Shown here piece by piece: positions 532 to 49,410 of a stretch of DNA of 64,000 bases. The number at the start of each line of letters is the position of its first letter. Positions within the stretch are counted from its first letter, which is position 1. The notes under the pieces are model-generated. The model made no database searches and was not told the DNA's origin. It saw only the letters and a list, made by a program, of their open reading frames with translations. The stretch lies in contig PNAE01000007.1 of NCBI GenBank assembly GCA_003169895.1, forward strand, positions 1,004,314 through 1,068,313, in the 5' to 3' direction. This stretch comes from Gemmatimonadota bacterium (lineage in GTDB: Bacteria > Gemmatimonadota > Gemmatimonadetes > Gemmatimonadales > GWC2-71-9). Position numbers and translations under genes: made by a program.

Positions 532-626
532 AGAGCGACAAGAGAGACGAGAGATGAGAGAAATCGATTGGCCGCGCTATCGTTGCTGATCGACGTCTCT
601 CGTCTCTCGTCTCTCGTCTCTCTCCC
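532..626. repeat. Heptad-phased inverted repeat (GAGACGA-type); right arm is 4 perfect CGTCTCT units at 594-621
   Basis: The left arm agagcgacaagagagacgagagatgagaga (532-561) and the cgtctct x4 right arm are separated by a spacer of about 30 nt. The element lies between convergent genes and starts 5 nt after the TAA at 525-527. Confidence 0.75.
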
Positions 627-3525: not shown

Positions 3526-4767
3526 GTGATGCACGACCCCTGGGCCGCGCTCCGGCACCGCGACTACCGCCGCTTTCTCACCACCCATTTCGCCACCACG
3601 CTTGGCGTCCAGATCCAGGACGTCATCGTTGCCTGGCAGATGTACCTCGATACCCATGACCCGCTGTCACTCGGCCTGGTGGGACTCGCCGAGGCGCTTC
3701 CCAACATCCTGACGTCGCTGCTCGGCGGGCATGTAGCGGATCGGATGGACCGTCGCAAGCTGGCGCTGATTGCCACCTGGGTTCTGCTCGGCTGTGCGTT
3801 GGTATTGGCCGTGCTGGCGGGGTTCCACGGCCAAGCGAGTCACTGGCGCGTCGTCGGTGTGTACGGCGTGGTCGCGGTCAGCGGCGTAGCGCGCGCCTTC
3901 CTGCAGCCGGCCCGCACGGCACTCGCCGCGTCGATGGTACCCCGGGCAATGCAGCCCAACGCGATCACCTGGCGAAGCACCACCTGGCAGCTGGGTGCGG
4001 TGATCGGGCCGGCGCTCGGTGGTCTGCTCAACGCGGCGGTCGGGTTCCGCGGCAGCTACCTCGCCGATGCCGCCCTCATCGTCGTCGCGTTGTTCGCGCT
4101 CGCCGCGATCGAGTATCGCGGTGCACCGGTGGCGCCCGGTCCTTCCGAGCCGATCCTGCGCTCGTTGACCACCGGGATCCGCTACCTGCGGGGCCAGCAG
4201 GTCCTTCTCGGTGCCATGACGCTGGACCTGTTCTCGGTGCTGTTCGGCGGGGCGGTCGCGCTGCTGCCGATCTTCGTCGCCGACATCCTGCACACCGGCG
4301 TATGGGGCCTCGGGCTCCTGCGGGCGGCGCCCGCCGCTGGCGCACTCGCGATGTCGGTCTACCTGGCATGGCGGCCGCCGATGCAGCATGCCGGTCGGTC
4401 GCTGCTGATCGCGGTCGCCGCATTCGGCGCGTTCACGATCGGCTTCGGCCTCGCGCGCACCGTCTGGCTGTCGTTCGCGTGCCTGGCGGTGAGCGGCGCG
4501 GCCGATATGGTCAGCGTCGTCGTCCGTTCGACGCTGATGCAGCTGCTGGTGCCCAATCACCTGATGGGACGAGTCGCCAGCGTAAACTCGATCTTCATCG
4601 GCTCGAGCAACGAGATCGGTTCGTTCGAGTCCGGCCTCACGGCGCGATTGCTTGGCGCAGTGCCGGCGGTGCTGCTGGGCGGCGGGCTGACGCTCGCCGT
4701 GGTCGGCGGGACGGCGATCTGGGCACCGAAGCTGGGCCGAGTGCGAAGATTGGATGAGGTAAGATAG
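3526..4767 (+). CDS. MFS transporter
   Basis: 413 aa with about 12 hydrophobic segments and an MFS-like loop motif (GGHVADRMDRRK) between TM2 and TM3. Confidence 0.85.
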   Translation: MMHDPWAALRHRDYRRFLTTHFATTLGVQIQDVIVAWQMYLDTHDPLSLGLVGLAEALPNILTSLLGGHVADRMDRRKLALIATWVLLGCALVLAVLAGFHGQASHWRVVGVYGVVAVSGVARAFLQPARTALAASMVPRAMQPNAITWRSTTWQLGAVIGPALGGLLNAAVGFRGSYLADAALIVVALFALAAIEYRGAPVAPGPSEPILRSLTTGIRYLRGQQVLLGAMTLDLFSVLFGGAVALLPIFVADILHTGVWGLGLLRAAPAAGALAMSVYLAWRPPMQHAGRSLLIAVAAFGAFTIGFGLARTVWLSFACLAVSGAADMVSVVVRSTLMQLLVPNHLMGRVASVNSIFIGSSNEIGSFESGLTARLLGAVPAVLLGGGLTLAVVGGTAIWAPKLGRVRRLDEVR

Positions 4768-4976
4768 GGAAGAGAGACGAGAGACGAGAGACGTGAGACG
4801 TGAAACGAGAGACGAGAGACGAGAGACGAGAGACGAGAGAAGAGCCCCCGTCCGTGTCATCCCTCGCGTTGGCTCGGGATGCCAGCACGGCCATGCCGGT
4901 CACGTCTCACGTCTCACGTCTCTCGTCTCTCGTCAATAGTCTCTCGTCTCTCGTCAATAGTCTCTCGTCTCTCGTT
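4768..4976. repeat. Largest heptad-phased inverted repeat (GAGACGA/GAGACGT arrays, ~75-nt arms)
   Basis: The left arm (4768-4844) has about 10 GAGACGA/GAGACGT units. The right arm (4899-4976) has ACGTCTC/TCGTCTC units, including a 21-nt direct duplication tctctcgtctctcgtcaatag x2. The loop carries an ATCCCTCGC..GCTCGGGATG unit. The element starts directly after the TAG at 4765-4767. Confidence 0.85.
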
Positions 4977-5418
4977 GCACCCGCTTCCAATCCATCACGA
5001 CGGCGATCAGGTGCGTCGTGATCGTCACCGCGCTGATCGCGCACCACGGGCAGAACGTCTTCAGGATGATGAATTCGGCATACTTGAGGCGGAGCGTGAA
5101 GATGAACGCCGGAATGACCAGCGCCATCAGGGCCACCGTGATGCGCGGGTCGTCGATCCAGCGTGAGCGCAGGCCGACGAGCGCGGTGATCACGATCAGC
5201 GTATAGCCGACCGTGCCGATGAGCGCGACGTCGACACCGAGGAACCGACCCCATCGGGAGGTCATGGCATATTCGCAGCCGTGGTTCGCGGTGCAGGCGA
5301 GCGCGCCCATGTACCCCAGCTTCCAGAGGTGGAGGTACAGGGCGACCAGACCGGCGATGACAGCCGTCATCGCGATCCAGTGGCGGGGCGTGAAGCCGGT
5401 CGAGGTGGATTGGGTCAC
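4954..5418 (-). CDS. Vitamin K epoxide reductase (VKOR) family membrane protein
   Basis: 154 aa with four hydrophobic segments, a loop Cys pair (CTANHGC) and a CPWC redox motif. The C-terminal ..QRETRDY is read from the repeat arm. Confidence 0.8.
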   Translation of the reverse strand: MTQSTSTGFTPRHWIAMTAVIAGLVALYLHLWKLGYMGALACTANHGCEYAMTSRWGRFLGVDVALIGTVGYTLIVITALVGLRSRWIDDPRITVALMALVIPAFIFTLRLKYAEFIILKTFCPWCAISAVTITTHLIAVVMDWKRVQRETRDY

Positions 5419-7087: not shown

Positions 7088-7245
7088 GAGAGACGAGAGA
7101 CGTGAGACGTGAGACGTGAGACGTGAACAACGTGGCGGTAGCGTCGTCCTGAGCGAAGGGACCCGTCGCTATGTTCGGGATGATAGCCCTGCAGGCCGTT
7201 CCTTCTCACGTCTCACGTCTCACGTTTCTCGTCTCTCGTCTCTCG
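7088..7245. repeat. Heptad-phased inverted repeat (GAGACGT/GTGAGAC arrays) with a GTCGTCCTGAGCGAAGGGAC unit in the loop
   Basis: Left arm 7088-7127 and right arm 7204-7245, between convergent prfC (stop 7080-7082) and selO (stop 7248-7250). TGA occurs at 7103, 7110, 7117 and 7124, which covers all three frames. Confidence 0.85.
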
Positions 7246-7247
7246 CC

Positions 7248-8759
7248 TTACGAACTGCAGCTGACGGCGATCTCTCGCGCCCATTCAGGCGGCCGCTCCG
7301 CGTACCGCTCCGCCGCCGGGTGTTCGTCGAACGGTGTCTGCAACAGGCGGCGAAGCTCCTCGATCGGCGCATAGTTACCCGCCTGGGCGCCGGCAATCGC
7401 TTCCTGCGCCATCCAGTTACGCAACACGAACTTGGGGTTGGTGCCGAGCATCCGGCCGTGTCGCGCGGTGACGTCGATGCTCTCCCGCAGCACGCGTTGC
7501 GTGTAGCGGGCCAGCCACGCAGTGAGGCGCTCCAGTGCGGGCACCTCGGCGCGCAACGCATCGTTGCGCTGGACATCGCGTGTGCTGTCACCGGCGGCAT
7601 GGTGTGACAGCGCGCGAAAAAAGCGGGTGTAGTCGGCGCGCGTGTCGTGCAGCAGCGCCAGCAGATCGGCCACCAGTACCACGTCACCGGCTTCGGTGCC
7701 CACGAGGCCGAGCTTCGCTCGCATCAGCTGGTCCATCTCGGCCTCGAACGTCCCACGATACTCTTCGAGTGCCGCGACAACCGCAGTTCCGCGCGACGCC
7801 GCCGGGACATCCTGGTCGAGCAGCGGCAGCAGTGCTTCGCCGAGTCGGGCGCAGTTCCACAGTCCGACGCGCGGCTGCTGATCGAACGCGTAGCGCCCGG
7901 CTGGATCGGAATGATTGGGGATGAAGCCGCGGTCGTAGGCGTCCATCCAGGCGTAGGGGCCGTAGTCGAGGGAGATGCCGAGAATTGACATGTTGTCGGT
8001 GTTCAGCACGCCGTGGGCGAAGCCGACCGCAGTCCAAGCCGCCATCAGCCGCGCGGTGCGAGCGACGACTTCGCGGTACCACGCCACGTATCGAGCCGGC
8101 GCGGGCAGCGTGAGCAGGTGGGCAAAGTGCATGTCGATCACGTAGTCGGCGAGTTGCCGCAACGCGGCGTCCTGACCGCGCGACGCGAACAGTTCAAAGG
8201 TGCCGAAGCGCACGTGGGTCGGCGCCACGCGCACGAGCACCGCGCCGGTCTCGACCTGCTCCCGGAATACCGGCGCGTCGCTTCCGATGATCGCCAGCGA
8301 ACGCGTGGTCGAAATGCCCAGGCCGTGCATCGCTTCGCCGGCGAGATACTCGCGTACCGTGGAGCGGAGCACCGCCCGCCCGTCGCCCATCCGCGAAAAG
8401 CGCGTCAAGCCGGCACCCTTGAGCTGCACGTCCCAGCGCTGGTGCCGCGAATTGACGATCTCGCCGAGCAGGATCGCCCGCCCGTCGCCCAACTCCGGCA
8501 CCCACACCCCGAACTGGTGCCCGGCGTAGATTGCGGCAATCGGCTGGGTGCCCGCCAGCGCGAGTTCGCCATTCAATGCCGCGACGAACTCGCGCCGCCC
8601 TCCCTCGCCCGGGTCGAGGTCCAACAGGGCGGCGACGTCGGGGTTGAAGGCCACCAGGGTGGGGTCGGGCAGCGGCGTTGGCCTGACCTGCTGGTAGAAC
8701 GCCTCCGGCAGGCGGGCGAACGAATTGTCCCAGCGCAGGTCTTCCAAGGGTCGGAGCAC
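7248..8759 (-). CDS. selO: Protein adenylyltransferase SelO (YdiU/UPF0061 family)
   Basis: 503 aa with characteristic segments ..FARLPEAFY.., ..GDGRAVLRS..REYL.. and ..HGVLNTDNMSILG..DYGPY. Confidence 0.9.
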   Translation of the reverse strand: MLRPLEDLRWDNSFARLPEAFYQQVRPTPLPDPTLVAFNPDVAALLDLDPGEGGRREFVAALNGELALAGTQPIAAIYAGHQFGVWVPELGDGRAILLGEIVNSRHQRWDVQLKGAGLTRFSRMGDGRAVLRSTVREYLAGEAMHGLGISTTRSLAIIGSDAPVFREQVETGAVLVRVAPTHVRFGTFELFASRGQDAALRQLADYVIDMHFAHLLTLPAPARYVAWYREVVARTARLMAAWTAVGFAHGVLNTDNMSILGISLDYGPYAWMDAYDRGFIPNHSDPAGRYAFDQQPRVGLWNCARLGEALLPLLDQDVPAASRGTAVVAALEEYRGTFEAEMDQLMRAKLGLVGTEAGDVVLVADLLALLHDTRADYTRFFRALSHHAAGDSTRDVQRNDALRAEVPALERLTAWLARYTQRVLRESIDVTARHGRMLGTNPKFVLRNWMAQEAIAGAQAGNYAPIEELRRLLQTPFDEHPAAERYAERPPEWAREIAVSCSS

Positions 8760-8855
8760 GGCGGAAACCTATCCAGCCGTGAAACCAACCTGGGCTCGGC
8801 AACGTTTATATCTGGAACGGGCTCCAACCCGTCTTTCCCCGGCAGGAGCAAGTCG

Positions 8856-9572
8856 ATGACGCCGAAATACTGGGCACGAATCGTCGCGGGCATGCTGGTT
8901 GTCTTCGCCATCGGCATGCTGGCCGCGCGCGGGATTCACAAAGGCAAGGATTTCGTGATGGACAACTTTCCCGCGTCACTCGGGCTGCTCAATGCGCAGT
9001 TCCGTGTCGACGGCGGCCGATTGGGGGATATCCAGCGGCTGCAGTTCATGCGGTCGCATCCGGGGCGGGTCGATTCCGCGGTCATGACGGTGAAGCTGGC
9101 AAGTTCCACGGACGCCAAGCGGCTCGATGGCTGCGCGTTGCGTGTCACGAACGGCCAGCCGTTCGGTAGTCATACCCGATTCCTCTGCGCCTCCAGCGCT
9201 GATTCCGCACGGCTCGGGCTGGTGCCCTTCGGGCACGTCGTGCTGCTGCCCGACGGCAAGCAGGTCACGTTGTTCGTCGCGCGCGACGTGCAAGACGACA
9301 TGCAGCAGCACGCGTATCGCGGCACGGGTGGTAACGACTCCGGCGACGTCGATATCCAGGCGGCTGATGGTCGTTTCCAGATCAGCGTCAATGGCAAGGT
9401 GATCGTGCAGGCGTCAGGGGACTCGAACGGCGGCAGTCTGGTCATCCGCGGCGCCAATGGCCGGCCGATCGTTGAAATCAACGGTGACAGTGCCGGTGGA
9501 TCCGTGAAGGTTACCGATGCGAACGGGAAGACCCGGGTGAACATCAACGGGAAGCAGGACAGCGGAAAGTAG
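8856..9572 (+). CDS. Hypothetical membrane-anchored protein
   Basis: ATG 8856 is preceded by AGGAG (8844-8848). One N-terminal TM segment (IVAGMLVVFAIGMLAA) and a Gly/Asn-rich repetitive C-terminus. The 5' part of ORF 8013-9572 is antisense to selO and was discarded. Confidence 0.6.
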   Translation: MTPKYWARIVAGMLVVFAIGMLAARGIHKGKDFVMDNFPASLGLLNAQFRVDGGRLGDIQRLQFMRSHPGRVDSAVMTVKLASSTDAKRLDGCALRVTNGQPFGSHTRFLCASSADSARLGLVPFGHVVLLPDGKQVTLFVARDVQDDMQQHAYRGTGGNDSGDVDIQAADGRFQISVNGKVIVQASGDSNGGSLVIRGANGRPIVEINGDSAGGSVKVTDANGKTRVNINGKQDSGK

Positions 9573-21905: not shown

Positions 21906-22241
21906 TCAGCCATTCTTCGGGCTTGGGGTGCGGGGAGTGGCCAGCGCCAATGCCTGGGCCAAGCGCGTCAGGTCGCGTTGCATGCGCCGGATGGTGGCTG
22001 CGGTCGTCGCGAAGTGGAAGAGCGCAAAGATGATAAAAAAATAGAACATCAGGTCGGCGCCGCGTCCAACACCGAGGCGAGCAGCGACACGGTTGGTGAA
22101 CTCGGGATTGAGAATCAGCGCGACGCCGATCGCGGCGAGGCCGAGGTAGGTCACCCGATCGCCGCTGGTACTGCGCAGGCGGAAGATATAAATCGCGAAC
22201 AGTGCCAACAGGACGAGAAGAACAATCTGGGACGGACGCAT
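21906..22241 (-). CDS. Small 4-TM membrane protein (DUF2304-like GT2 partner)
   Basis: 111 aa, hydrophobic, located immediately downstream of a GT2 gene on the same strand. The family assignment is from memory of DUF2304 and is not computed. Confidence 0.65.
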   Translation of the reverse strand: MRPSQIVLLVLLALFAIYIFRLRSTSGDRVTYLGLAAIGVALILNPEFTNRVAARLGVGRGADLMFYFFIIFALFHFATTAATIRRMQRDLTRLAQALALATPRTPSPKNG

Positions 22242-22245
22242 TCGG

Positions 22246-22962
22246 CTACCTCGTTTTGGCGATCAGTAAGTCCCACAGCACGCTGACGGCGTCAATCAGC
22301 CCCTGACCTTTGGAGAGCGAATAGGGCGTGTAGGAGACGCGAACCGGAACCTCCTGGTAGCGTAGTCGCAGCCGCGCCACTTCGGCCTGAATCTCCGAGG
22401 CATGAGCCATGCGATCCTGCTGCAGGACGAGTCGGCTCAACACATCGCAACGAAAGCCGCGCATGCCATTGTGGGTGTCAGTGAGCTTCAGTCCTGTCGT
22501 CCACCGTGCCAGACGGGTGGCAAGGCGCAGCAACACCTTGCGACTTGCGGGGATGCTGCCGAGACCGTCCGGTTCAAGGAACCGGGATCCCAACGTGACA
22601 TCGGCGGTATCGCTCGCTAGCGGCGCGATTAGTCGAGGCACCGCGCTGGGGTCGTGCTGTCCGTCGGCATCGAACGTGACGACGAAGCGCATCGCGGGAT
22701 CGCGACTGGCGTATACAAATCCCGTCGCCAGTGCGGCGCCTTGCCCAACATTCACCGCGTGGCGCAGCACCCACGCACCGGCGGCCAGCGCACAGGCAGC
22801 CGTATCGTCTTCCGATCCGTCGTCGACAACCACAACGTGCCAGTGATCGTCGACCAGGCGGGCCACCACCGTGCCGATGGTCCGTGCTTCCTGATAGGCT
22901 GCAATGACGATCCAGGTCGCCCGCCGGACGAGCTGGTCTGCCGGATTCACGGATGAGGCCAT
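22246..22962 (-). CDS. GT2 glycosyltransferase (polyprenol-phosphate glycosyltransferase-like)
   Basis: Motifs VIAAYQE..VVVDDGSEDDT..FDADGQH. Start set at ATG 22962 (MASSVNP..); the upstream 124 codons of the ORF are an Arg/Gln/His-rich extension. Confidence 0.85.
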   Translation of the reverse strand: MASSVNPADQLVRRATWIVIAAYQEARTIGTVVARLVDDHWHVVVVDDGSEDDTAACALAAGAWVLRHAVNVGQGAALATGFVYASRDPAMRFVVTFDADGQHDPSAVPRLIAPLASDTADVTLGSRFLEPDGLGSIPASRKVLLRLATRLARWTTGLKLTDTHNGMRGFRCDVLSRLVLQQDRMAHASEIQAEVARLRLRYQEVPVRVSYTPYSLSKGQGLIDAVSVLWDLLIAKTR

Positions 22963-22995
22963 CAGTCCAGGGCCCGAAGGGGTGGTGTTGAACTC

Positions 22996-24609
22996 ATGCG
23001 AGATCCACGCCCGCTGGTTGTCCTCGTCCTGCTGCTGCTCGTGGTGCTCGTTGCGCGCAGATGGATCCGCGCCGTACCTGCTCTGCCGCCGTCGATGCGA
23101 CTGCGAGGGGCGGTTGCGGTCGCGGCAGCAGCGTTCACGATGGCTCTCACTGTTTGGGTTTGGGGTGGGCTGAGGGCTCCAGCGGTCGTCGATGACGAGG
23201 CAGCGTACGTGCTGCAGGCCGACCTCTTTGCTCACGGCCGCTGGACCCGCCCGAGTCCGTTGCCATCCTTGTCGTTCACGCAACCAGCTGTGCTGGTGAC
23301 GCCGGTTCTGGCGCCCAAGATGCCACCAGGTCACGCGCTGTTGCTTGCCCCAGGAGCCCTCATCGGCCTGCCGGGACTCATCCCGGTCCTGCTCAGCGGC
23401 GCAACGGCAGCGCTGCTCGTGCTGCTGGTGTGCGAAGTCCAGTCGCCGGCCGTCGCCGTGCTGACGGTGATTGTGTGGCTCACGTTCGCCGGCCAGATGC
23501 GTTGGCGTGCCTCATACTTCTCGGAAATTACTACCGGCATGCTTTGGCTGCTGGGGTGGTGGGCCCTGCTGCGCTGGCGACAGACGCGACGCACCGGGTG
23601 GTTGCTGCTCCTTGCTACGGCCATCGGCTGGGGTGCCATCACCCGACCACTCACCATGCTCGCTTTCGCGCTTCCAATTGGTATTGTCGTTCTGCGCGAC
23701 GTGATCCGCGGGAAGCACTGGCGACAGTTGGCCGGTGCGATGGCCGTAGGTGTTGCCTGCCTCGCGTTGCTACCAATCCAGAACTACGAAGTGCTCGGAA
23801 ACTGGCGGGAGAGTCCGCTGGCGCTGTACACGAGCGAATACATGCCGTTTGACCGAATTGGATTCGGGTTTGACTCTACACCGCCGTCGCTTGGGCTGCC
23901 GGACGACCTGCAAGCAGCGCAGTTGCCGATCATGGCCCGCCATCGGGAGCATCAACCGAGTGCGTTACCACGGGTCCTTGCCACCCGGCTCTGGGAACTT
24001 CGCATGTCGACGTTCGGTGGGTGGCGGGTACTCTGGATTCCCGCGGCGATGGTCGGCGCCGCAATCATCGGTGCATCCGGATGGTTCGCGATCGCGTCGG
24101 GCTTGACGCTTTATTTGGCCTATCTGCTGTACGCCCACGAGCCACACTGGACCGTGTACTATCTCGAGGCGGCGCCGGCGGCCGCCTTCGTCTGCGCGAC
24201 AGGCCTGGCTTGGCTGCTGGCACGTGCTACGGCGGCTCGGCGTGAGCTGCCACTTGCTACCGCCGCAATGGCGGCGCTTGCGATCCTGGCGGCCGGCTGG
24301 CGGGAATTGCACACGGCCCGAACGTTCCGTGCCGGGGCGCAGAAGCCGTTTCGCGCGTTGGAACATGACGTGGCCGCGACAGGCATTCCACACGCCCTCG
24401 TCTTCATTCGTAACTCTGTCGGCCACGACCCGAGCGTCAATTTCGTGCGCAACGTGGCCGACGCTGCGCGCGCGCCAATACTGACCGCATATGATCGAGG
24501 TCCAGCGGACAAGGCCCGCACGATGGCTCATTATCCCGACCGTGCGGTGTTGTACTGGGATGGCGACCTTACGCATCTCGTCGGCCCGACGCGCGACACG
24601 CTTCCATGA
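22996..24609 (+). CDS. GT-C-fold-like polytopic membrane glycosyltransferase
   Basis: 537 aa with more than 10 TM segments, an acidic first-loop motif VVDDEAAYVLQADLF and a KMPPGH loop. Confidence 0.7.
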   Translation: MRDPRPLVVLVLLLLVVLVARRWIRAVPALPPSMRLRGAVAVAAAAFTMALTVWVWGGLRAPAVVDDEAAYVLQADLFAHGRWTRPSPLPSLSFTQPAVLVTPVLAPKMPPGHALLLAPGALIGLPGLIPVLLSGATAALLVLLVCEVQSPAVAVLTVIVWLTFAGQMRWRASYFSEITTGMLWLLGWWALLRWRQTRRTGWLLLLATAIGWGAITRPLTMLAFALPIGIVVLRDVIRGKHWRQLAGAMAVGVACLALLPIQNYEVLGNWRESPLALYTSEYMPFDRIGFGFDSTPPSLGLPDDLQAAQLPIMARHREHQPSALPRVLATRLWELRMSTFGGWRVLWIPAAMVGAAIIGASGWFAIASGLTLYLAYLLYAHEPHWTVYYLEAAPAAAFVCATGLAWLLARATAARRELPLATAAMAALAILAAGWRELHTARTFRAGAQKPFRALEHDVAATGIPHALVFIRNSVGHDPSVNFVRNVADAARAPILTAYDRGPADKARTMAHYPDRAVLYWDGDLTHLVGPTRDTLP

Positions 24610-25298
24610 GCGGTGCCCTGACCGAAAGACCCGCGCCGGCTCCGAAGGCTCTCATCTTCGATGTCGACGGCACGCTGTATCATCACACTCCCGTGCGATT
24701 GCGTCTGGCCGGGCAGCTGCTCGCTCAGCTGATTCGCCGGCCACGCTCCGGCACACGCACCATTCGGGCGCTCCGGGCATATCGCCGTGCGCTGGAAGAT
24801 CTGCGCAACACGCAGGAGAGTGACAGCGTACTCGACGTGTCGGTCGAACTACGCCGACTCGCATCGCGAGCGACCGGAATTCCAGTCGATGAGATCGAGC
24901 GTTACGTGAATGCGTGGATGTTGCGGGCGCCGCTGCCATTGCTGGCGCGCGCGCGCCGTGCCCACGTCGTCGAGGTGTGTGCTGCGGCCCGTTCGCGCCG
25001 GATCCAGCTCGCCGCCTGTTCCGACTATCCCGCCGCCGCGAAGCTCGATGGCCTCGGCCTGAGCGGATTCTTTGATGTCGTGGTCACCGCGCAGGATGCC
25101 GATGTCGGCCGTGTCAAGCCGCATCCGCGCGGCCTGCACATTGTCCTCGCGAGGCTTGGGGTCGCTGCACATGATGCCTGGTATGTCGGCGACCGGGCGG
25201 ATGTGGATGACGGAGCGGCACGCGCGGCGGGTGTCACCTCGGTCATCCTGTCGCGGCGCTATACCATGGCCCATCTCCTGCAGGACATCAGCCGTTGA
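24606..25298 (+). CDS. HAD-superfamily hydrolase (phosphatase-like)
   Basis: Motif I FDVDGTL, motif II ACSD, and motifs III/IV K..GDRADVD. ATGA overlap with the upstream gene. Confidence 0.8.
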   Translation: MSGALTERPAPAPKALIFDVDGTLYHHTPVRLRLAGQLLAQLIRRPRSGTRTIRALRAYRRALEDLRNTQESDSVLDVSVELRRLASRATGIPVDEIERYVNAWMLRAPLPLLARARRAHVVEVCAAARSRRIQLAACSDYPAAAKLDGLGLSGFFDVVVTAQDADVGRVKPHPRGLHIVLARLGVAAHDAWYVGDRADVDDGAARAAGVTSVILSRRYTMAHLLQDISR

Positions 25299-26275
25299 TG
25301 ACCAATGCCACCATATCGACGCCTGCGCGGGGCACGCTCGCTGGTCACCTGGCGATCGCCCGGCTGGATCACTGGTCGAAGAATGTGTTCGTGCTTCCCG
25401 GCGTTGTTGCCGCCCTCGCACTGAACCCCACCGCAAATACTAGCGGTCTTGCCTCACGCTTCGTTCTGGGCGTGCTGTCGGTGTGCCTGATCTCCTCGAG
25501 CAACTACACTCTCAACGAAATCGTCGATGCGCCGTTCGATCTTTATCACCCCGACAAGCGCCATCGCCCGGTGCCGAGCGGCCGGGTCAATCTTCCACTC
25601 GGCTACTTGCAGTGGTTAGTACTTGCGGCCGCCGGTGCGGCACTCGGACTCAAGATCGGTGCGGCCTTCTCGGCCTCGGTCGCGGCGCTCTGGGTGATGG
25701 GATGCGGGTATAACCTGCGGCCATTGCGGACCAAGGATGTACCGTACCTGGATGTACTCACCGAAGCCATCAACAATCCGCTCCGGCTGCTGGCGGGTTG
25801 GTACATTGTCGATGCGCGGGTGTTTCCGCCGGCGACGCTGCTCCTGAGCTACTGGATGGTGGGCTGCTACTTCATGGCGATCAAGCGATTCGCCGAATGC
25901 CGGCAGCTCGGCAACGGGCCGCAGCGGTCGGCGTACCGCCGGTCACTGGCGTTTTTCACGCCCGAACGACTGCTGACCACGGTAATGTTCTACGGAGCAG
26001 CGGCGATGCTGTTCTTTGGCGCGTTCATCATGCGCTATCGCCTCGACCTGATTATTTCGTTCCCACTGGTGGCGCTCGTGATGGCGATGTATCTGCGGCT
26101 GGGGTTCAGGCCGGGAAGTGCCGCGCAACATCCCGAGAAGCTCTATCGCGAACCGGCACTGATGGTCGCGGTATGCGTCTGCGCGCTGGTTATGGGCCTG
26201 CTCTTGTTCGTGCACGTGCCATTGCTCGATACCGTGTTCCCGCCGACTGTTCCGACCGCAGACTGGACTCGTTGA
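25295..26275 (+). CDS. UbiA-family prenyltransferase, decaprenyl-phosphate phosphoribosyltransferase-like
   Basis: About 8-9 TM segments. The Asp-rich motif NYTLNEIVDAPFD followed by HPDKRHRPVPSGRV resembles the DPPR-synthase subfamily pattern (NDxxDxxxD..HP.KR.RP.A.G). Confidence 0.8.
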   Translation: MMTNATISTPARGTLAGHLAIARLDHWSKNVFVLPGVVAALALNPTANTSGLASRFVLGVLSVCLISSSNYTLNEIVDAPFDLYHPDKRHRPVPSGRVNLPLGYLQWLVLAAAGAALGLKIGAAFSASVAALWVMGCGYNLRPLRTKDVPYLDVLTEAINNPLRLLAGWYIVDARVFPPATLLLSYWMVGCYFMAIKRFAECRQLGNGPQRSAYRRSLAFFTPERLLTTVMFYGAAAMLFFGAFIMRYRLDLIISFPLVALVMAMYLRLGFRPGSAAQHPEKLYREPALMVAVCVCALVMGLLLFVHVPLLDTVFPPTVPTADWTR

Positions 26276-26277
26276 CG

Positions 26278-28005
26278 CTATTGCCGGGCGGCCGCGCGCG
26301 TCGCCGGTCGAACCACTTCGAGAACGCCCGCGCAACCGGGAACGCTCTGCAGGCGGTTCGGCGGAATCGTGGTGTCGGCCGGTACTGCGACAACGTACGT
26401 AACGCTCAAGGCGTCCAGAAACTTCGAGCGCTCATCACCGGATAGCTGGGGCCAGTTGTGCGGCAGCTCAAGGCCGATGCGGTCGAGATAGTAGCCCACG
26501 GCATACGCCGCCACGTCGTCGGTGGCCATCAATACCCGTGCGGTGCGCGGTAGGCAGCGGTCAAGATCTCTGATCGGGACACCTGAGATCAGCCCATCAC
26601 GTCCGCCGCGGGAAATGTGTTGCAAGTCCATGAAGTCGGGATGCTGGTGGACAACCTGTTCGGCGTAGAGAGACTTCTTCCACCCCAGTGCGGCGCCGAT
26701 CAGCAGCGGCACCATGGCCATCCTCCGGAATCGGTGCACTGGCGATGTCACCAGCAGTACCAGGCTCCAGAAGGATATGGCGAGGAAAATGGGGGCGAAG
26801 TACCGCAGTTCGAAAAATCCGGTAGTCAATGGACCGGCGAGCTGTGCAATGAACGCCGCGACGATGACGAGCGTCACGCCAACCTGTCGGCTGGTCCATC
26901 GAGCCAAGTTCCCCGGTTGCGTGCGAGTCCACAGGGCAAAGACAGCAAGCAGGGCGGGAGCGAATGCATAGCGCGTGGTGCCGCGCCAGAGCGAACTGGT
27001 GATGCCGGGCAGGTTGTGCGTCACACGCGCCAGCCATTCCGCACCTGCTTCGCGCAAGGTCGGCGGAAACACCGGGTACCAGTTATTCACGAAATTGATG
27101 GCGGCACTCTTCGCGACCATCGCGTTGTCGCTGGCGAACGCAACTCCGAAGGCCACCCGAGAATAGAGCATCCACGGCAGGAGCATCAACGCGACGGCGA
27201 TACCGTAACCTGTCAGCCAGCGAAGCACCCCGCCGCGCTGCCAGGCGAACGGAAGGCCCAACCCGAGGACCACGACGATCGGCGCGCTGTCGAAACGCGT
27301 CATCCAGAGCAATCCAGCCAGCCCACCGACGATCAGCCCGGTTCGAAAACCTGTCTCGCGCAGCCGGGTCAGTGCGATGCCGATGGCGACATAGCAGAGC
27401 AGTGCCGCCGCCATGGACCTCCCGCCGAGTATGTCGTCGAGGAATGGTCCGTAACTGAGGAGTGCAGCCCATATCGCAACCGCCGCGAAGTGCCTGCGTC
27501 CGCGTGCGTGAACGAGCGGACGCAACATGATTGCGATGCAGGGCAGGAGCCCAACGGTGAACACCGCCGCGGTGATGATACCCAGCCACGGACCCAAGCG
27601 AAGCAGGCGTGAGACCAGGAAGAGAATCAGTGGCCACACCGGCGGGAAACTGTCGGCGGCATCGGTGAGGTACTGGTACTGTCGGACCAATGGAATATGG
27701 TATGGTATCGATCCGAACGACCGCGCCAGCAGCAGATAGGCCCAGCTGTCAGGGGTGAGCGGCGGGCGTACGCGAGTGGAGATCAGACCGAGCAAGAGCA
27801 GCAGCCCTGTAGCCAACATGATGATGGCCGCAATGCTCGACCAGCCATAGAGCCGTAAGGTGCTCACCATGCGTAGCAGGCGGCGCACGCGGGAAGTTCG
27901 CGTCACGGAGTCAGCGACAAATCGCCCTCGCGCCGAAGATGACAGGAATGTCAATCGCCCGACGGGAAGTATCGTGCGCACCGTCCGGCGTGTCGAGGGC
28001 CGCAA
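26278..28005 (-). CDS. GT-C-fold-like polytopic membrane protein
   Basis: 575 aa with more than 10 TM segments, a first-loop motif TPDSWAYLLLARSF and SFPPVWPL. An alternative start at ATG 27870 (MVSTLRLYGW..) is possible. Confidence 0.65.
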   Translation of the reverse strand: MRPSTRRTVRTILPVGRLTFLSSSARGRFVADSVTRTSRVRRLLRMVSTLRLYGWSSIAAIIMLATGLLLLLGLISTRVRPPLTPDSWAYLLLARSFGSIPYHIPLVRQYQYLTDAADSFPPVWPLILFLVSRLLRLGPWLGIITAAVFTVGLLPCIAIMLRPLVHARGRRHFAAVAIWAALLSYGPFLDDILGGRSMAAALLCYVAIGIALTRLRETGFRTGLIVGGLAGLLWMTRFDSAPIVVVLGLGLPFAWQRGGVLRWLTGYGIAVALMLLPWMLYSRVAFGVAFASDNAMVAKSAAINFVNNWYPVFPPTLREAGAEWLARVTHNLPGITSSLWRGTTRYAFAPALLAVFALWTRTQPGNLARWTSRQVGVTLVIVAAFIAQLAGPLTTGFFELRYFAPIFLAISFWSLVLLVTSPVHRFRRMAMVPLLIGAALGWKKSLYAEQVVHQHPDFMDLQHISRGGRDGLISGVPIRDLDRCLPRTARVLMATDDVAAYAVGYYLDRIGLELPHNWPQLSGDERSKFLDALSVTYVVAVPADTTIPPNRLQSVPGCAGVLEVVRPATRAAARQ

Positions 28006-28220
28006 GCGAGCGAAACCAGTTGCCGGAGCACGTCGGGCGACGGCGCTCTTTCATCGTCGGCAGCGTCGTACTTCTCTCGTCGAAGGTCATCGTTTAGGTC
28101 CTCTGAGATAGCGGGGCTGTCACCCCGCGGTTCGGATCCTTCTCCCCAGAGAAGTTAGACAACGGGCTTTTTCCTGGAACCAACGGCGATTGAGCGACAC
28201 AGGTATCTGCACAGTATACG

Positions 28221-28325
28221 TCGACCCTGCAAACGTAAACCTCGACCCGGTCGACTCGAACCTCGACGCTGAAAACACGACCCTCGACCCTCTCGACTCA
28301 AACCTCGATCCTGCCGACTTTATTT
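28221..28325. repeat. Five phased 21-nt direct repeats built from TCGAnCC heptads
   Basis: Units tcgaccctgcaaacgtaaacc / tcgacccggtcgactcgaacc / tcgacgctgaaaacacgaccc / tcgaccctctcgactcaaacc / tcgatcctgccgactttattt. They lie directly 3' of the minus-strand stop at 28320-28322, with no inverted partner. Confidence 0.7.
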
Positions 28326-30251: not shown

Positions 30252-31921
30252 GGAACGGAGTCTCGGTGAGTTGTCGTGTGAGTCCCCGACGCGGCAGCGG
30301 CCCGCAACCGCTCCACCCGCTCCCGTTCGGATTGGAACTCGGTCTGGCCCAGGGCCAGCGCCAGAGCGGCATACCGGTCGGCCAGGTCCCACTGGTGCTC
30401 AGTGAGCAGGCACTCGATCAACTTGGCCCGGAGTGACGGAGCCTCCGGCTCCAGCCGCACGCCCGCGGCGAGAACCGGAACCGCGGCCGCACATTGTCCG
30501 TCAGTCCGAAGGAACTGGCCCAAACGTTCGTTGACCTCGTAATCATGCGGCCAGAGTTGCAGGGCATGCCGGAGGTTGGCGATTGCGCGAGGGTGGTCAC
30601 CCGCGCCCTCCCAATACTCGCCGGCGCCCTTCCACGCGCGATATGCCCGCGGCGCATCGTCGGTGAGATCGCTGTAGAAGCGGCGCTGGGTGCTCCAGGT
30701 CGGCACCCGGGTTGCGCTGCGAACACCAAGCACAACCCCCCAGATAACAAGTGCCGCAATCGGGATCCGTACACCCCAGACGTCTCTCGTCTCTCGTCTC
30801 TCGTCTCTCTTGTTGAGCATCGCGCCGAGAGCGATCGCCAGTCCGATGCTTGGCAGGAACAACACCCGCTCCGCCATGACAATCCCGGTTGGCACGAGCA
30901 GGTTGGCGACCGGTGCGAGTGTCACCGCCGCCCACCAAAGCCCGAAGGCGGCGGTTGGTGCGCGGCGTCGCGCAAGCGCAAATAGCGCGATGTATCCGAT
31001 CAGAAGAATCGCGCCGGCGATGTGCCGGGCAGCAACTGGCCCGCCGACCGGAATGCCGGGCGGCCCGTAGTCGGCCTGCAGATGCAGCGGCCAGAACAGC
31101 AGACGCACGTACTCGGGAATGACGCCCAGGAACGTGACGGCGCGCGCTCCGGGCCCAAGTCCGCGGAGCGCCATGGCCGGCGTATCGCCAGCGAAACCGG
31201 TCAGCACGCCGGCACGCACGACGAGCAGCAGCAGCGTAAGCGCCGTCACCGGGACCAGCAGCCGGGCGCGCCTCGCCACTCGGGCGATGCGGATGCCCTT
31301 CTCTCGTCCCTCGTCTCTCGTCTCTCCTGGCGCCAGCAGCCATTCGGCCCCGCCAAGGAGCAGGGGCGCCATGAACCCCTGTTCCTTGGCAGCTATACCA
31401 ATGGCTACTATAGCGAGAAGCGCCAGAACAACACCGGCCGTCACACCGGTACGCCGCGCGTCCAGGTAGATCGATGTGGCAGTCAGCAGTGCCAGTGCAG
31501 TCCACAGCTCCGCCTGACCCACGCCGTTGGCCACCACTTCCACGTGAACGGGGTGCACCAGGAACAGCAGCGTCGCGGCGAGGGCGGGCAGTTCCCGCAC
31601 CGCAAGCCGCCGGAGCAGTGCGTAGAGCGCCAGCCCGCAGCCGAGGTAACCGAGCAGCAGTGTGAGATGAAAAATCCACGGTGCGCCCTGACCCAGGCGC
31701 CATTGCAGCGCAAATCCGGCCACGGTCAGCGGGCGCCACAGCGTGCCGAGCCAGTATGGCGATGCCGCGATGGTATGCCACTGGGTGGGATCGGTGACCC
31801 GCGAATTCTGCACGATGGCCGGCAGGTCGTCATACACGAAGCCGTTGCGAAGGCTCAGCCCCATCGCCAGCGCTACCGCGAGCGCGCAGGCGGCGAACAC
31901 CTCGCGTCGTCGCAACCTCAT
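30248..31921 (-). CDS. TMTC-like membrane protein: GT-C-type TM domain (DUF1736-like) plus C-terminal TPR repeats
   Basis: First-loop motif GFVYDDLPAIVQNSRV, about 9-11 TM segments, and a TPR-like C-terminus (..AYRAWKGAGEYWEGAGDHPRAIANLRHALQLWP..). It contains two in-frame heptad-repeat patches. Confidence 0.8.
   Translation of the reverse strand: MRLRRREVFAACALAVALAMGLSLRNGFVYDDLPAIVQNSRVTDPTQWHTIAASPYWLGTLWRPLTVAGFALQWRLGQGAPWIFHLTLLLGYLGCGLALYALLRRLAVRELPALAATLLFLVHPVHVEVVANGVGQAELWTALALLTATSIYLDARRTGVTAGVVLALLAIVAIGIAAKEQGFMAPLLLGGAEWLLAPGETRDEGREKGIRIARVARRARLLVPVTALTLLLLVVRAGVLTGFAGDTPAMALRGLGPGARAVTFLGVIPEYVRLLFWPLHLQADYGPPGIPVGGPVAARHIAGAILLIGYIALFALARRRAPTAAFGLWWAAVTLAPVANLLVPTGIVMAERVLFLPSIGLAIALGAMLNKRDERRETRDVWGVRIPIAALVIWGVVLGVRSATRVPTWSTQRRFYSDLTDDAPRAYRAWKGAGEYWEGAGDHPRAIANLRHALQLWPHDYEVNERLGQFLRTDGQCAAAVPVLAAGVRLEPEAPSLRAKLIECLLTEHQWDLADRYAALALALGQTEFQSERERVERLRAAAASGTHTTTHRDSVP
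30781..30808. repeat. Four perfect CGTCTCT heptads inside the CDS (encode ..RDERRETRD..)
   Basis: cgtctct x4 at 30781-30808, with no inverted partner nearby. Confidence 0.75.
31298..31326. repeat. Degenerate CGTCTCT heptad patch inside the CDS (encodes ..GETRDEGRE..)
   Basis: cttctct cgtccct cgtctct cgtctct at 31298-31325. Confidence 0.6.
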
Positions 31922-34886: not shown

Positions 34887-35273
34887 ATGCGCAACTCACG
34901 TAGCGGCTTCACCCTGATCGAGCTTCTGATTGTGGTCGTGATCATCGGGATCCTGGCAGCCATCGCCATCCCGAAGTTCGCCGCGACCAAGGACAAGGCC
35001 AAGCTGGCGTCAGTCAAGGCGGACGTGCGCAACTCCGAGACCGCCGAAGAGGCCTACTTCTCGGACTTCGCCACCTACGCGGTCTACGCCCAGCTGCAGA
35101 CTGCGACCAACTTGCTCATCTCCCCGGGCAACACCATCAGCATTGCGACGAACGCCAGCGGTTACACGGTTACCGCGACGAACAGTTCGATCTCGACCGG
35201 CATCACCAGCTGTCAGGTTCAGGTGGGCGCCGGGGCGACGACTGGGATTGACGGGCAGATCAAGTGCCCGTGA
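34887..35273 (+). CDS. Type IV major pilin paralogue
   Basis: MRNSRSG|FTLIELLIVVVIIGILAAIAIPKFAATKDKAKLASVK.. is almost identical to the first pilin over ~55 aa, with a divergent C-terminal half and a conserved Cys pair. Confidence 0.9.
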   Translation: MRNSRSGFTLIELLIVVVIIGILAAIAIPKFAATKDKAKLASVKADVRNSETAEEAYFSDFATYAVYAQLQTATNLLISPGNTISIATNASGYTVTATNSSISTGITSCQVQVGAGATTGIDGQIKCP

Positions 35274-35327
35274 CAAGTGAGACGTAAGCGGTGAAAGGTG
35301 AAAGGGGTGTCGTCCCTCTCACTTCCG
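35272..35327. repeat. Heptad-phased array (GTGAGAC/GTAAGCG/GTGAAAG units) directly after the pilin stop
   Basis: tgacaa gtgagac gtaagcg gtgaaag gtgaaag gggtgtcgtccctctcacttcc. The tip motif GGGgTGTCGTCCC is shared with the hslV-hslU element. Self-complementarity is weak. Confidence 0.6.
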
Positions 35328-41702: not shown

Positions 41703-41705
41703 ATG

Positions 41706-41784
41706 ACGTGAGAGGTAAGACGTAAGAGGGGATCTCCACGCACGACGGAGATCCCCTCTTACGTCTCACCTCTCACCTCTTACC
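41706..41784. repeat. Heptad-phased hairpin (GTGAGAG/GTAAGAC/GTAAGAG units) with a perfect 19-bp core stem
   Basis: gacgtaagaggggatctcc (41719-41737) and ggagatcccctcttacgtc (41747-41765) flank a 9-nt loop. The stem extends about 11 bp further with 2 mismatches. The element fills the pilQ-aroC spacer. Confidence 0.85.
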
Positions 41785-41791
41785 TTCCGTC

Positions 41792-43601: not shown

Positions 43602-43670
43602 CGACAACGGCTCGGCCGTTGTCATCCCGAGCGAAGCGCCGGCACCGCCGGCGCGAAGTTGTGGGATCTC
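43602..43670. repeat. Structured element containing a GTCATCCCGAGCGAAGCG half-unit
   Basis: gacaacggc-tcg-gccgttgtc (9-bp stem), then atcccgagcgaagcGCCGGCaccGCCGGCgcgaagttgtgggat (8-bp GC stem flanked by ATCCC/GGGAT). It lies upstream of topA. Confidence 0.5.
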
Positions 43671-48695: not shown

Positions 48696-48710
48696 TGAGC
48701 ACAGATCTTG

Positions 48711-48775
48711 TCATCCCGAGCGAAGCGAGGGATCGGCCCGCCGCATAGCGATCCCTCGCTTCGCTCGGGATGACA
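48711..48775. repeat. Perfect 25-bp inverted repeat GTCATCCCGAGCGAAGCGAGGGATC / GATCCCTCGCTTCGCTCGGGATGAC
   Basis: Arms at 48711-48735 and 48751-48775 with a 15-nt loop, between xerC and hslV. Related half-units occur at 43619-43636, 4858-4883 and 7143-7162. Confidence 0.85.
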
Positions 48776-48792: not shown

Positions 48793-49338
48793 ATGACCGA
48801 ATTCCATGGAACAACCATCCTGGCCGTCCGCAAGAACCGCCGCGTCGCCCTCGGCGGCGACGGCCAGGTCTCCATCGACGCGACGATCGTCAAGGCGCAC
48901 GCCAACAAGGTGCGCACCCTCAAGGGCGGCCGTATTCTGGCCGGATTTGCGGGGTCGGTCGCCGACGCGCTCACACTATTCGAGCGCTTCGAGGAGAAGT
49001 TCGACCGCTATCCCGGTAACCTCACCCGCGCCGCGACGGAGCTGGCCAAGGACTGGCGCAGTGACCGCTACTTGCGCCGGCTGGAAGCGTTGCTGGTGGT
49101 CGCCGATCTCGACCACGTGTTTCTGCTGAGCGGAACCGGAGAGCTGATCGAGCCGGACGACGGCATCATGGCCGTGGGATCCGGTGGCACCTACGCTCTG
49201 GCCGCCGCACGCGCCTTGTATCCGGACGAGCAGATGGAGGCGCGCGCCATCGTGGAGCGGAGCTTGCAGATCGCGAGCGAGATCTGCGTGTTTACCAACG
49301 CCAACGTGACGATACTGGAATTGGGTAAAGAGGCGTGA
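48793..49338 (+). CDS. hslV: ATP-dependent protease subunit HslV
   Basis: [13 protein letters not shown].. (catalytic Thr after processing) and ..GGDGQVS...(IV)K..A.K(VR)..; 181 aa. Confidence 0.95.
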
Positions 49339-49410
49339 AGAGTGCAAGGTGAAAGGTGAAAGGGATGTGATGTCGTCCCGTTTTACCTCTTACCTTTCAC
49401 CTTTCACGCC
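49332..49410. repeat. Heptad-phased imperfect hairpin (GTGAAAG units) filling the hslV-hslU spacer
   Basis: The left arm ggcgtgaagagtgcaaggtgaaaggtgaaaggga includes the hslV stop. The reverse complement of the right arm is ggcgtgaaaggtgaaaggtaagaggtaaaacggg. About 26 of 34 positions are complementary by hand count. Confidence 0.8.

Follow-up and report, generated by a model that had tools for sequence, protein, structure and literature searches.

A 64,000-nucleotide stretch of the genome of a Gemmatimonadota bacterium (assembly GCA_003169895.1, contig PNAE01000007.1, positions 1,004,314 to 1,068,313; the window, below) carries arrays of tandem 7-nucleotide (nt) units, some of which, as at positions 4768-4976, face an inverted array of the same unit and form a long hairpin. 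These arrays are confined to the 3' ends of genes, gain and lose whole units, and have a fixed polarity, from a purine-rich 5' arm to a pyrimidine-rich 3' arm. On balance, we favor reading them as heptamer simple sequence repeats (SSRs) generated by slippage on 3'-end hairpins, probably serving as bidirectional terminator or processing structures that do without a U tract. The slippage part of this reading is close to certain; between a terminator/processing function and a neutral by-product the odds are roughly even.

A heptamer hairpin between two convergent genes

The structure at 4768-4976 and its neighborhood comprise the following features, as defined by Tandem Repeats Finder (TRF), folding, a search for inverted pairs, open reading frames (ORFs) and Pfam; REP denotes repetitive extragenic palindromes.

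3526..4767, + strand: MFS transporter gene, upstream and convergent; its stop abuts the 5' arm (Pfam MFS_3/MFS_1)
4772..4844, + strand: 5' purine-rich arm, about 10.4 heptamers, GAGAGAC/GAGACGA with GAGACGT and GTGAAAC variants (TRF, sequence)
4845..4902: 58-nt core/loop with an imperfect inner palindrome (~4854-4888) related to the REP-like GTCATCCYGAGCGAAG family (folds, core comparison, motif search)
4903..4975, - strand: 3' pyrimidine-rich arm, about 10.4 heptamers, CGTCTCT on the + strand, that is, GAGACGA-type on the - strand (TRF, inverted-repeat pairs)
4918..4975: higher-order 21-nt repeat, 2.8 copies, of two TCTCTCG units and one TCAATAG unit, within the 3' arm (TRF, sequence, ORF list)
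4954..5418, - strand: VKOR family gene, downstream and convergent; final codons and stop fall within the 3' arm (Pfam VKOR match up to residue 139 of 154)

An initial annotation of this DNA, made from the sequence alone, had described about ten units per arm and an internal 21-nt duplication. TRF counted 10.4 units in either arm (GAGAGAC, 4772-4844, 92% matches; CGTCTCT, 4903-4975, 80% matches) and recovered the duplication, at period 21, as an exact unit present 2.8 times at 4918-4975 (100% matches). The repeat finder paired the arms over 76 nt with 82% complementarity and returned 17 further pairings in other registers, as anticipated for periodic arms. Folding of positions 4760-4985 gave -129.7 kcal/mol for + strand RNA (z -10.5), -134.8 kcal/mol for - strand RNA (z -9.8) and -73.4 kcal/mol for DNA (z -9.7). 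The inner palindrome, CATCCC...GGGATG, formed within the loop in all folds, bearing out the suggestion that a distinct palindromic unit is nested there. When cores were compared, that of 4768 scored 50 with its orthologue in the relative L001 (see below) and 20 with a REP-like core of the relative L003. The 5' arm begins 4 nt downstream of the MFS gene's TAG stop codon (4765-4767), and the TGA stop of the VKOR gene (4954-4956, - strand) is supplied by the variant unit TCAATAG.

Excess, period and composition of the arrays

The window yielded 17 period-7 TRF rows against a mean of 2.5 (maximum 6) in 30 dinucleotide-preserving shuffles, an approximately 7-fold excess, and five period-21 rows against 0.1 in such shuffles; the arrays are thus above shuffled expectation, a comparison that the initial annotation had singled out. 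In 208 kb of Gemmatimonadota DNA, a sample picked through proteins and not through repeats, rows with TRF scores of at least 40 numbered 34 for period 7, nine for period 21, six for period 14 and no more than seven for any other period.

The heptamers had been taken for members of one loose family. Their units do fit the pattern G-W-R-A-R-A-S, with the exception of the TCGACCC type (28221), which falls outside it. Six of seven positions are purines in 24 of 39 units, and at least 18 unit classes are represented among 39 arrays. The GAGACGA, GAGACGT, GTGAAAG and GTAAGAG units contain no GGG runs, which sets them apart from the G-tract subtype of heptameric SSRs (GGGAATC/GGGGATT).

Complementarity between the two arms of a hairpin is no better than with permuted unit order. 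The arms are therefore independent arrays of one unit, not base-for-base mirrors of each other. Fold-back or template-switch copying of a whole arm, considered as an origin for the inverted arrays, was rejected on the same ground: unit order is mirrored no better than in permutations.

Location and polarity

Six inverted arrays had been proposed for the window. Five of them are strong hairpins (532, 4768, 7088, 41706 and 49332; z from -8.7 to -12.3); the site at 35272 is not significant. Besides that at 4768, the array sites outside coding sequence are as follows.

532..626: hairpin of the same type as 4768, between convergent M1-peptidase and rhodanese/MBL genes; the core is a palindrome of its own; -62.4 kcal/mol, z -8.7 (TRF, fold, Pfam)
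7088..7245: hairpin of the same type as 4768, between convergent prfC and selO; GAGACGA/GAGACGT arms, core holding the REP-like GTCGTCCTGAGCGAAGGGA; -106.3 kcal/mol, z -12.3 (TRF, fold, motif)
28207..28319, - strand: direct period-21 array of TCGACCC-type heptamers, purine-rich on the - strand, beginning right after the stop of the gene at 28320-30392 (-) (TRF, sequence)
35272..35327: marginal site, 2.3 GGTGAAA units; weak stem, fold z -0.4, no better than shuffles (TRF, fold)
41705..41785: hairpin of GTAAGAG/GTGAGAG/GTAAGAC units, between co-directional genes, secretin then chorismate synthase (aroC); -58.1 kcal/mol, z -10.9 (TRF, fold, Pfam)
49332..49410: hairpin of GTGAAAG units, between co-directional hslV-like and hslU-like genes; -50 kcal/mol, z -10.8 (TRF, fold, terminator scan, Pfam)

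The fold of the array at 28221-28325 was not significant (z -0.8 / -0.6); this array is direct, not inverted. Seven of the nine window sites are intergenic. On a heuristic gene map, all three clear convergent junctions with spacers longer than 30 nt are occupied by array hairpins (532, 4768 and 7088), and at the remaining convergent junctions the genes lie 2-27 nt apart with no array between them. The genes that flank the arrays are ordinary housekeeping genes by Pfam, and the GC content of the window is 66%.

Most of 21 hairpins examined have an array that starts between about 3 nt before and 18 nt after the upstream stop codon. The stop codon of hslV, for instance, sits in the first GTGAAAG unit of the 49332 hairpin. 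Where the unit contains no stop codon, the adjoining ORF runs into the array; the last codons of the VKOR and rhodanese proteins are array-encoded. Classified by junction type with heuristic gene calls, 22 hairpins, several of them orthologues of one another, fell into ten convergent, 12 co-directional and no divergent junctions (about seven, nine and none once orthologous duplicates were removed).

The 147 period-7 arrays found in Gemmatimonadota DNA include 32 inverted pairs, and in 30 of these the purine-rich arm is the 5' one. A purine-first polarity reads alike from either strand and is therefore a real property, not an artefact of orientation. With a purine array 5' and a pyrimidine array 3', a transcript arriving from either direction passes through the purine arm first, then the core and last the pyrimidine arm.

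Unit gain, loss and replacement in relatives

Synteny around prfC was compared in six relatives reached through RF3, whose best named relatives are in Gemmatimonadales MAGs; an exact look-up of the MFS protein had returned no record. In the closest, L001 (RF3 99% identical), the flanks of the 4768 site are 100% identical to those of the window, while the left arm is shorter by 35 nt (five units) and the right arm by 42 nt (six units); in the core there are four substitutions and an indel of 1 nt. At the 7088 site, the left arm of L001 is longer by 14 nt (two units) and a 79-nt deletion takes out the right arm. The comparison of array lengths among relatives that the initial annotation called for thus returned differences of 35, 42 and 14 nt, all multiples of the unit. 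Because identical flanks are combined with unit-multiple indels and with a 21-nt higher-order repeat, we ascribe the arrays to slippage. Unit type changes as well: at the M1/rhodanese site, arms of the GAGACGA type in the window correspond to GTGAAAG arms in L001.

Among the other relatives, L003 (87%) has arrays, and L198 (77%) is full of arrays made of other units (GAGAGAA, GGTGAAA and 11 copies of AGGTCGT). No arrays are present in L002 (87%), L197 (81%) and L199 (67%), whose convergent genes meet or overlap. The M1 site of L002 has a plain purine-to-pyrimidine hairpin with a T-rich tail, possibly the unexpanded state.

Spacers between hslV and hslU, recovered from metagenomes, gave the following series.

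Window: GTGAAAG arms
L126 (HslV 98%): GAGACGA arms
L130: GGCGAAC arms
L149: GCGAGAA arms
L127, L128, L134: REP-like palindromes
More distant lineages: no spacer

A further spacer in this series, that of the 85% relative L129 (10540-10700), holds about 27 nt repeated in tandem four times (GGGGCGAACCGTGATTGTTGTAG) and ending in a hairpin with a T-run. The identity of L126 and the window breaks off 12 codons ahead of the hslV stop and resumes 14 nt ahead of the hslU start. In the diverged patch (window 49296-49410, L126 3522-3690), the last 12 hslV codons are about 70% identical and the hairpin is wholly different; judging from the alignment, this patch looks like a recombination import or local hypermutation. 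These comparisons show that the arrays turn over far faster than the adjacent genes and that the unit type at one site is replaced between relatives that are 98-99% identical.

Such replacement bears on the idea that the arrays are binding sites for a sequence-specific DNA- or RNA-binding protein (a nucleoid, regulatory or RNA-binding factor) that reads 7-nt units, with 21 bp equal to two helical turns. The strict 7-nt phasing, the 21-nt higher-order repeats and the strongly purine-rich units would suit such a protein, and similar proposals exist for the TAACTGA repeats (PMC4679880). Against it, GAGACGA, GTGAAAG, GGCGAAC or GCGAGAA units occupy one and the same site in close relatives, and other close relatives have no arrays. 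With at least 18 unit classes among 39 arrays, and units being swapped, there is therefore no single recognition sequence, and we regard this explanation as very improbable.

Contigs of short-read metagenome-assembled genomes (MAGs) often end inside (GAGACGA)n arrays (L003 11603-11718, L015 1-127 and many other loci), and the L003 contig ends 26 nt past a 12-unit array downstream of prfC. The arrays therefore fragment short-read assemblies. That many MAG matches to (GAGACGA)n lie at contig ends, and that short-read assemblers mishandle such arrays, could raise the suspicion of an assembly or sequencing artefact. Yet orthologous sites have arrays in ENA, JGI and NCBI assemblies that are independent of one another, and arrays also lie inside complete genomes and long contigs of isolates, e.g., of Sorangium and Pseudoalteromonas, and an artefact can be practically dismissed.

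Nested REP-like palindromes

A second type of repeat is found in some of the hairpin cores. The motif GTCATCCYGAGCGAAGSGA has five matches in the window against 0.11 expected. Two of these are in a perfect 65-nt palindrome and one is in the core of the 7088 hairpin (7143-7161).

48710..48774: perfect 65-nt REP-like palindrome, GTCATCCCGAGCGAAGCGAGGGATC plus its complement, filling the spacer upstream of hslV; fold -70.5 kcal/mol

The 4768 core (4854-4888) is a weaker form of the motif and resembles the REP-like core of L003. The palindrome nested in the 4768 loop is thus a member of another repeat family in these genomes, one that is REP-like. The palindrome family GTCATCCYGAGCGAAGCGAGGGATC is also seen at 43621-43639 of the window and fills orthologous spacers in relatives (L003 9297-9432; L127, L128 and L134). 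In L198 (Gemmatimonadales, GCA_033764135.1), positions 8854-9176 and 3947-4097 contain (GGTGAAM)n mosaics broken up by a 21-nt palindrome, GGCGCGGCAGAGCCGCGCGGG, and also have a long REP-like core, a composite resembling bacterial interspersed mosaic elements (BIMEs). The initial annotation had held the arrays not to be REP/BIME-like. This is correct for the arms, which are periodic and variable in length and unit, unlike a conserved 20-40-nt palindrome present in many copies; it does not extend to the cores at 4768 and 7088, which are variants of the REP-like palindrome GTCATCCYGAGCGAAG.

The presence of such cores, together with the 3' intergenic location, might suggest a non-autonomous mobile element, of either the MITE (miniature inverted-repeat transposable element) or the REP/REPIN (paired-REP) type, that has heptamer arrays as terminal inverted repeats (TIRs) and a transposase encoded elsewhere. 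Presence/absence polymorphism, wholesale replacement at one site between 98% relatives and the L198 mosaic of small palindromes and heptamers would also fit, as would an element, its core conserved and its termini (GAGACGA)4, that is present three times in a Bacillota MAG (twice in L087, once in L121). However, among 23 Gemmatimonadota hairpins core lengths span 5 to 115 nt and core sequences are unrelated except for orthologues and the REP-like subset, arm lengths change by multiples of the unit between strains, unlike TIRs, and no target-site duplication is visible at the junctions. Nor was a transposase noticed beside any copy, although no search aimed at one was made. The MITE model was accordingly set aside as not supported, and we give mobile elements in general little credence.

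The Bacillota element (MAG WQYD01; L087 3717-3870 and 7020-7170, L121 3178-3330) is bounded by (GAGACGA)4 and (TCGTCTC)4, with about 95 nt between them. Its conserved core (gataaggaat...cgacttacgacttacgaatgatagaggtatcaat) was read at L087 3717 and in L121. It looks MITE-like, unlike the Gemmatimonadota hairpins.

Comparison with terminators and other known elements

Canonical terminators (a hairpin followed by a T-run) were not above chance in 40 kb of the window (6 versus 8.7 expected, and 6 versus 11.1); something else must therefore mark 3' ends there. The arrays have the stop-proximal location of intrinsic terminators. The GAGACGA-type hairpins have no T-run behind them and in this respect are not canonical intrinsic terminators, in line with the earlier statement that a U tract is lacking. 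That statement fails for sites of the GTGAAAG type, whose 3' arms are U-rich (49362-49379, then GTTTTACC). The core of the 49332 hairpin, the only one to match in the terminator scan, looks together with GTTTTACC like a small intrinsic terminator.

There was no gathering-level Rfam match in the window; the only sub-threshold matches were to eukaryotic miRNA-precursor models and reflect generic long hairpins. A tRNA scan of the window gave nothing relevant. The arrays were rightly said not to resemble CRISPR arrays, since their units are 7 nt long, contiguous and free of spacers, as opposed to the direct repeats of a CRISPR array, which measure 24-48 nt and alternate with unique spacers of similar length.

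The initial annotation did not recognize a described element. As to kind, this was wrong: intergenic heptanucleotide SSRs have been described (Mrazek 2007, via PMC4679880 and PMC4692102). As reported in those two papers, heptanucleotides are the most abundant unit class among the long SSRs of repeat-rich prokaryotes (Mrazek, Guo & Shah 2007), 7-nt units are over-represented among those of 5-11 nt, and abundance is phylogenetically scattered and lineage-specific. A slippage property of the replicative polymerase has been suggested to account for the heptamer preference and, going by the same two papers, is the only idea published. In their account of the survey, inverted pairing, polarity and abutment on stop codons do not figure in its description, and Gemmatimonadota were apparently outside its scope. 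The class has no known mobilization mechanism, so that the arrays have not turned out to be a known family with a defined mode of mobilization, which the initial annotation had named as a possible refutation.

The closest parallel is with the GGGAATC heptameric SSRs of Xanthomonas (Rehm et al. 2015, PMC4692102). There are about 186 such arrays per genome, 89-93% of them intergenic, lying at a mean of 28 nt beyond the upstream ORF and much nearer to it than to the next one. Each genome has 70-75 inverted pairs, convergent in orientation, that could fold into stem-loops; arrays are scarce at divergent junctions, the neighbors are often housekeeping genes, and length and sequence differ between Xcc and Xac at the same gene pairs. 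No function was found (PMC4692102). The window arrays share with them the 7-nt tandem units, the intergenic and stop-proximal location, the inverted pairs, the variation in unit number and the rarity at divergent junctions. They differ in their host phylum, in the absence of G-tracts from their units, so that no G-quadruplex or i-motif is expected, in the coexistence of several unit types that replace one another at one site, in touching stop codons, and in the REP-like palindromes nested in some cores.

The TAACTGA repeats of Beggiatoaceae are direct 7-nt repeats of 2-6 copies that occur in hundreds of intergenic sets per genome, just upstream of start codons, with one inverted case in 170 and a patchy phylogenetic spread (MacGregor 2015, PMC4679880). 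Both kinds of repeat are thus heptameric, intergenic and patchy, although those described here form inverted pairs just downstream of stop codons. Cyanobacterial short tandemly repeated repetitive (STRR) sequences, or tandem heptameric repeats, are reportedly intergenic as well, with small dispersed hairpin elements embedded in them; cyanobacterial heptamer arrays have mostly been described as direct. The nesting of hairpins in heptamers recalls the REP-like cores and the 21-nt palindromes in the (GGTGAAM)n arrays of L198, although units and phylum are different.

With REP/BIME elements and bidirectional terminators, the arrays have in common that they are extragenic palindromes at 3' ends or between convergent genes, with plausible roles in termination and in 3'-end protection of mRNA. 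Bidirectional intrinsic terminators, with their A-tract / stem / U-tract layout, even share the purine-to-pyrimidine polarity. Unlike the conserved 20-40-nt palindromes of REP/BIME elements, the arms are periodic SSRs of variable length; unlike intrinsic terminators, GAGACGA-type copies have no T-run and their stems measure 30-75 bp versus 5-15 bp. No description of Gemmatimonadota heptamer repeats, or of these particular unit strings, was found in the literature collection searched. The arrays are best filed in the known class of intergenic heptanucleotide SSRs, and the kind of element is not new. What is new, apart from the host phylum, is a set of useful constraints on that class: the polarity, the abutment on stop codons and the swapping of units at the strain level.

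Arrays within coding sequence and in other phyla

The two window sites in coding sequence lie in the same ORF.

30781..30809, - strand: (AGAGACG)x4 in frame, within the glycosyltransferase-like ORF 30248-31921 (-); encodes KRDERRETRD (TRF, Pfam, translation)
31300..31326, - strand: second in-frame array of ORF 30248-31921 (-); encodes ETRDEGRE (TRF, translation)

ORF 30248-31921 (-) specifies a membrane glycosyltransferase-like protein (DUF6056/TPR), of which the two (AGAGACG)n arrays encode charged stretches. Heptamer slippage therefore also reaches coding sequence. The surrounding region, 22000-32000, contains PMT_2/TPR glycosyltransferase-like genes and has a GC content of 0.63-0.65, compared with 0.66-0.69 elsewhere; it is possibly an acquired surface-polysaccharide island. 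A (GGC)x8 run occupies 28345-28369.

More widely, (GAGACGA)4 was found in at least 120 stretches of a collection of species-representative genomes. The matches come from Gemmatimonadota (many per MAG), Fibrobacter, Planctomycetota, Kapaibacteria, Bacteroidales, Vibrionaceae and others, and include complete Sorangium genomes. Beyond Gemmatimonadota the arrays are mostly direct, with no inverted partner; in those that were read, a stop codon often precedes the array, and the purine-rich strand is the sense strand. Calls of (GAGACGA)n as lying inside ORFs are unreliable across phyla, since stop-free arrays in high-GC DNA generate long spurious ORFs. A Candidatus Kapaibacterium MAG (VEQR01000065; L055 ~7540-7830) has about 40-50 units in which AGTGACA, AGTGACG and GAGACGA alternate, followed by (AATCAGT)n. 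In Sorangium cellulosum So ce26 (L072, L059), arrays of GTTCAC/TGAACG-type units adjoin (GAGACGA)7-10 arrays, in inverted orientation in L072; the complete So ce26 genome carries several such sites.

The recurrence of one unit across phyla was considered as a sign of a conserved binding site and rejected. In viral contigs, (GAGACGA)4 has seven loci versus eight for its reverse and six for a shuffled control. Control heptamers of the same composition being equally frequent there, the unit is therefore not special; what recurs is the 7-nt period. GAGACG is also the BsmBI/Esp3I site, a coincidence that was dropped from consideration, as other units of the family do not contain it.

Proposed origin and function of the hairpins

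The reading that we prefer could operate as follows. A short 3'-end hairpin, be it a plain stem such as that of L002 or a palindrome of the REP-like kind, would supply complementary seeds on both flanks; the small terminator-like core of the 49332 hairpin may be another example of such a seed. Replication slippage would then amplify each flank in 7-nt steps, and the shifted pairing permitted by periodic arms would stabilize slipped intermediates and favor more slippage. In RNA, the resulting stem of 30-75 bp may act as a bidirectional 3'-end element, by termination, RNase III-type processing or protection of the 3' end. Stems of this length are natural substrates for RNase III. The purine-to-pyrimidine polarity would be the high-GC analogue of the A-tract / stem / U-tract layout, the pyrimidine-rich 3' arm providing a weak RNA:DNA hybrid; pyrimidine-rich nascent RNA forms the weakest class of such hybrids.

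Several observations weigh against this reading. Co-directional hairpins are more stable in sense than in antisense RNA in six of 14 cases, with a mean difference of -1 kcal/mol, and RNA-level strand-specific selection through G-U wobble was rejected for want of any signal in this comparison. The complementarity of the arms needs no selection beyond a common unit. Many cores are 40-115 nt long and non-palindromic, and such large loops are poor for classical termination. A strong terminator would be unexpected between hslV and hslU, normally one operon. The absence of arrays from the syntenic sites of L002, L197 and L199 indicates that the structure is dispensable. Finally, the copy numbers compared above come from short-read metagenome assemblies, which may collapse arrays.

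Some of these points lend themselves to another explanation, namely, that heptamer slippage is a mutational property of certain lineages whose products are kept where a 7-nt insertion is harmless, at or just after stop codons, and that the hairpin itself has no function: two purine-rich arrays, each on the sense strand, automatically make an inverted pair when they lie between convergent genes. A patchy and dispensable distribution would then be expected, as would arms that are independent, do not mirror each other's unit order and show no sense-strand bias in RNA. Unpaired, purine-rich sense-strand arrays do occur behind stop codons (28207-28319 and the examples from other phyla), in-frame arrays are found in tolerant protein loops, and no function was found for the Xanthomonas analogue (PMC4692102). 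Stop trinucleotides are present in 16 of 39 units (the arrays being non-independent) against 23% expected; this modest enrichment fits seeding at stop codons and gives weak support to a stop-codon-seeded origin of the units. The explanation does not account, however, for co-directional hairpins in which a rare unit is common to both arms and the second arm lies just before the next start codon (41705, 49342, L126, L130 and L149). Moreover, the 30 of 32 inverted pairs with the same polarity and the complete lack of divergent junctions suggest a constraint related to transcription, and the hslV-hslU spacer retains a long hairpin, of heptamer or REP type, in many lineages despite complete turnover of its sequence. 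A neutral by-product is in our view a serious contender, though a rather unlikely account of the hairpins as a whole, and slippage on 3'-end hairpins with a probable terminator or processing role remains the reading we favor.

A bolder proposal, which we put forward as speculation with a slim chance of being correct, is that a lineage-specific active process possessing a 7-nt molecular ruler (a polymerase, a repair or template-switching activity, or an unrecognized enzyme) builds self-extending, strictly purine-to-pyrimidine hairpins, on which these high-GC bacteria would chiefly rely for bidirectional termination or processing without a U tract. That ruler would then also lie behind the heptamer SSRs of Xanthomonas, cyanobacteria, Beggiatoaceae and the other phyla with (GAGACGA)n.

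In practical terms, the arrays break short-read assemblies and extend or truncate the C-termini of annotated proteins, such as the VKOR and rhodanese proteins. Since 1990 and 2007, heptanucleotide repeats have been on record as a peculiarity of certain bacterial genomes. On explanations of them the Gemmatimonadota case places a set of constraints: a fixed polarity, abutment on stop codons, absence from divergent junctions, indels in multiples of the unit, the swapping of units at one site and an on/off distribution among relatives.

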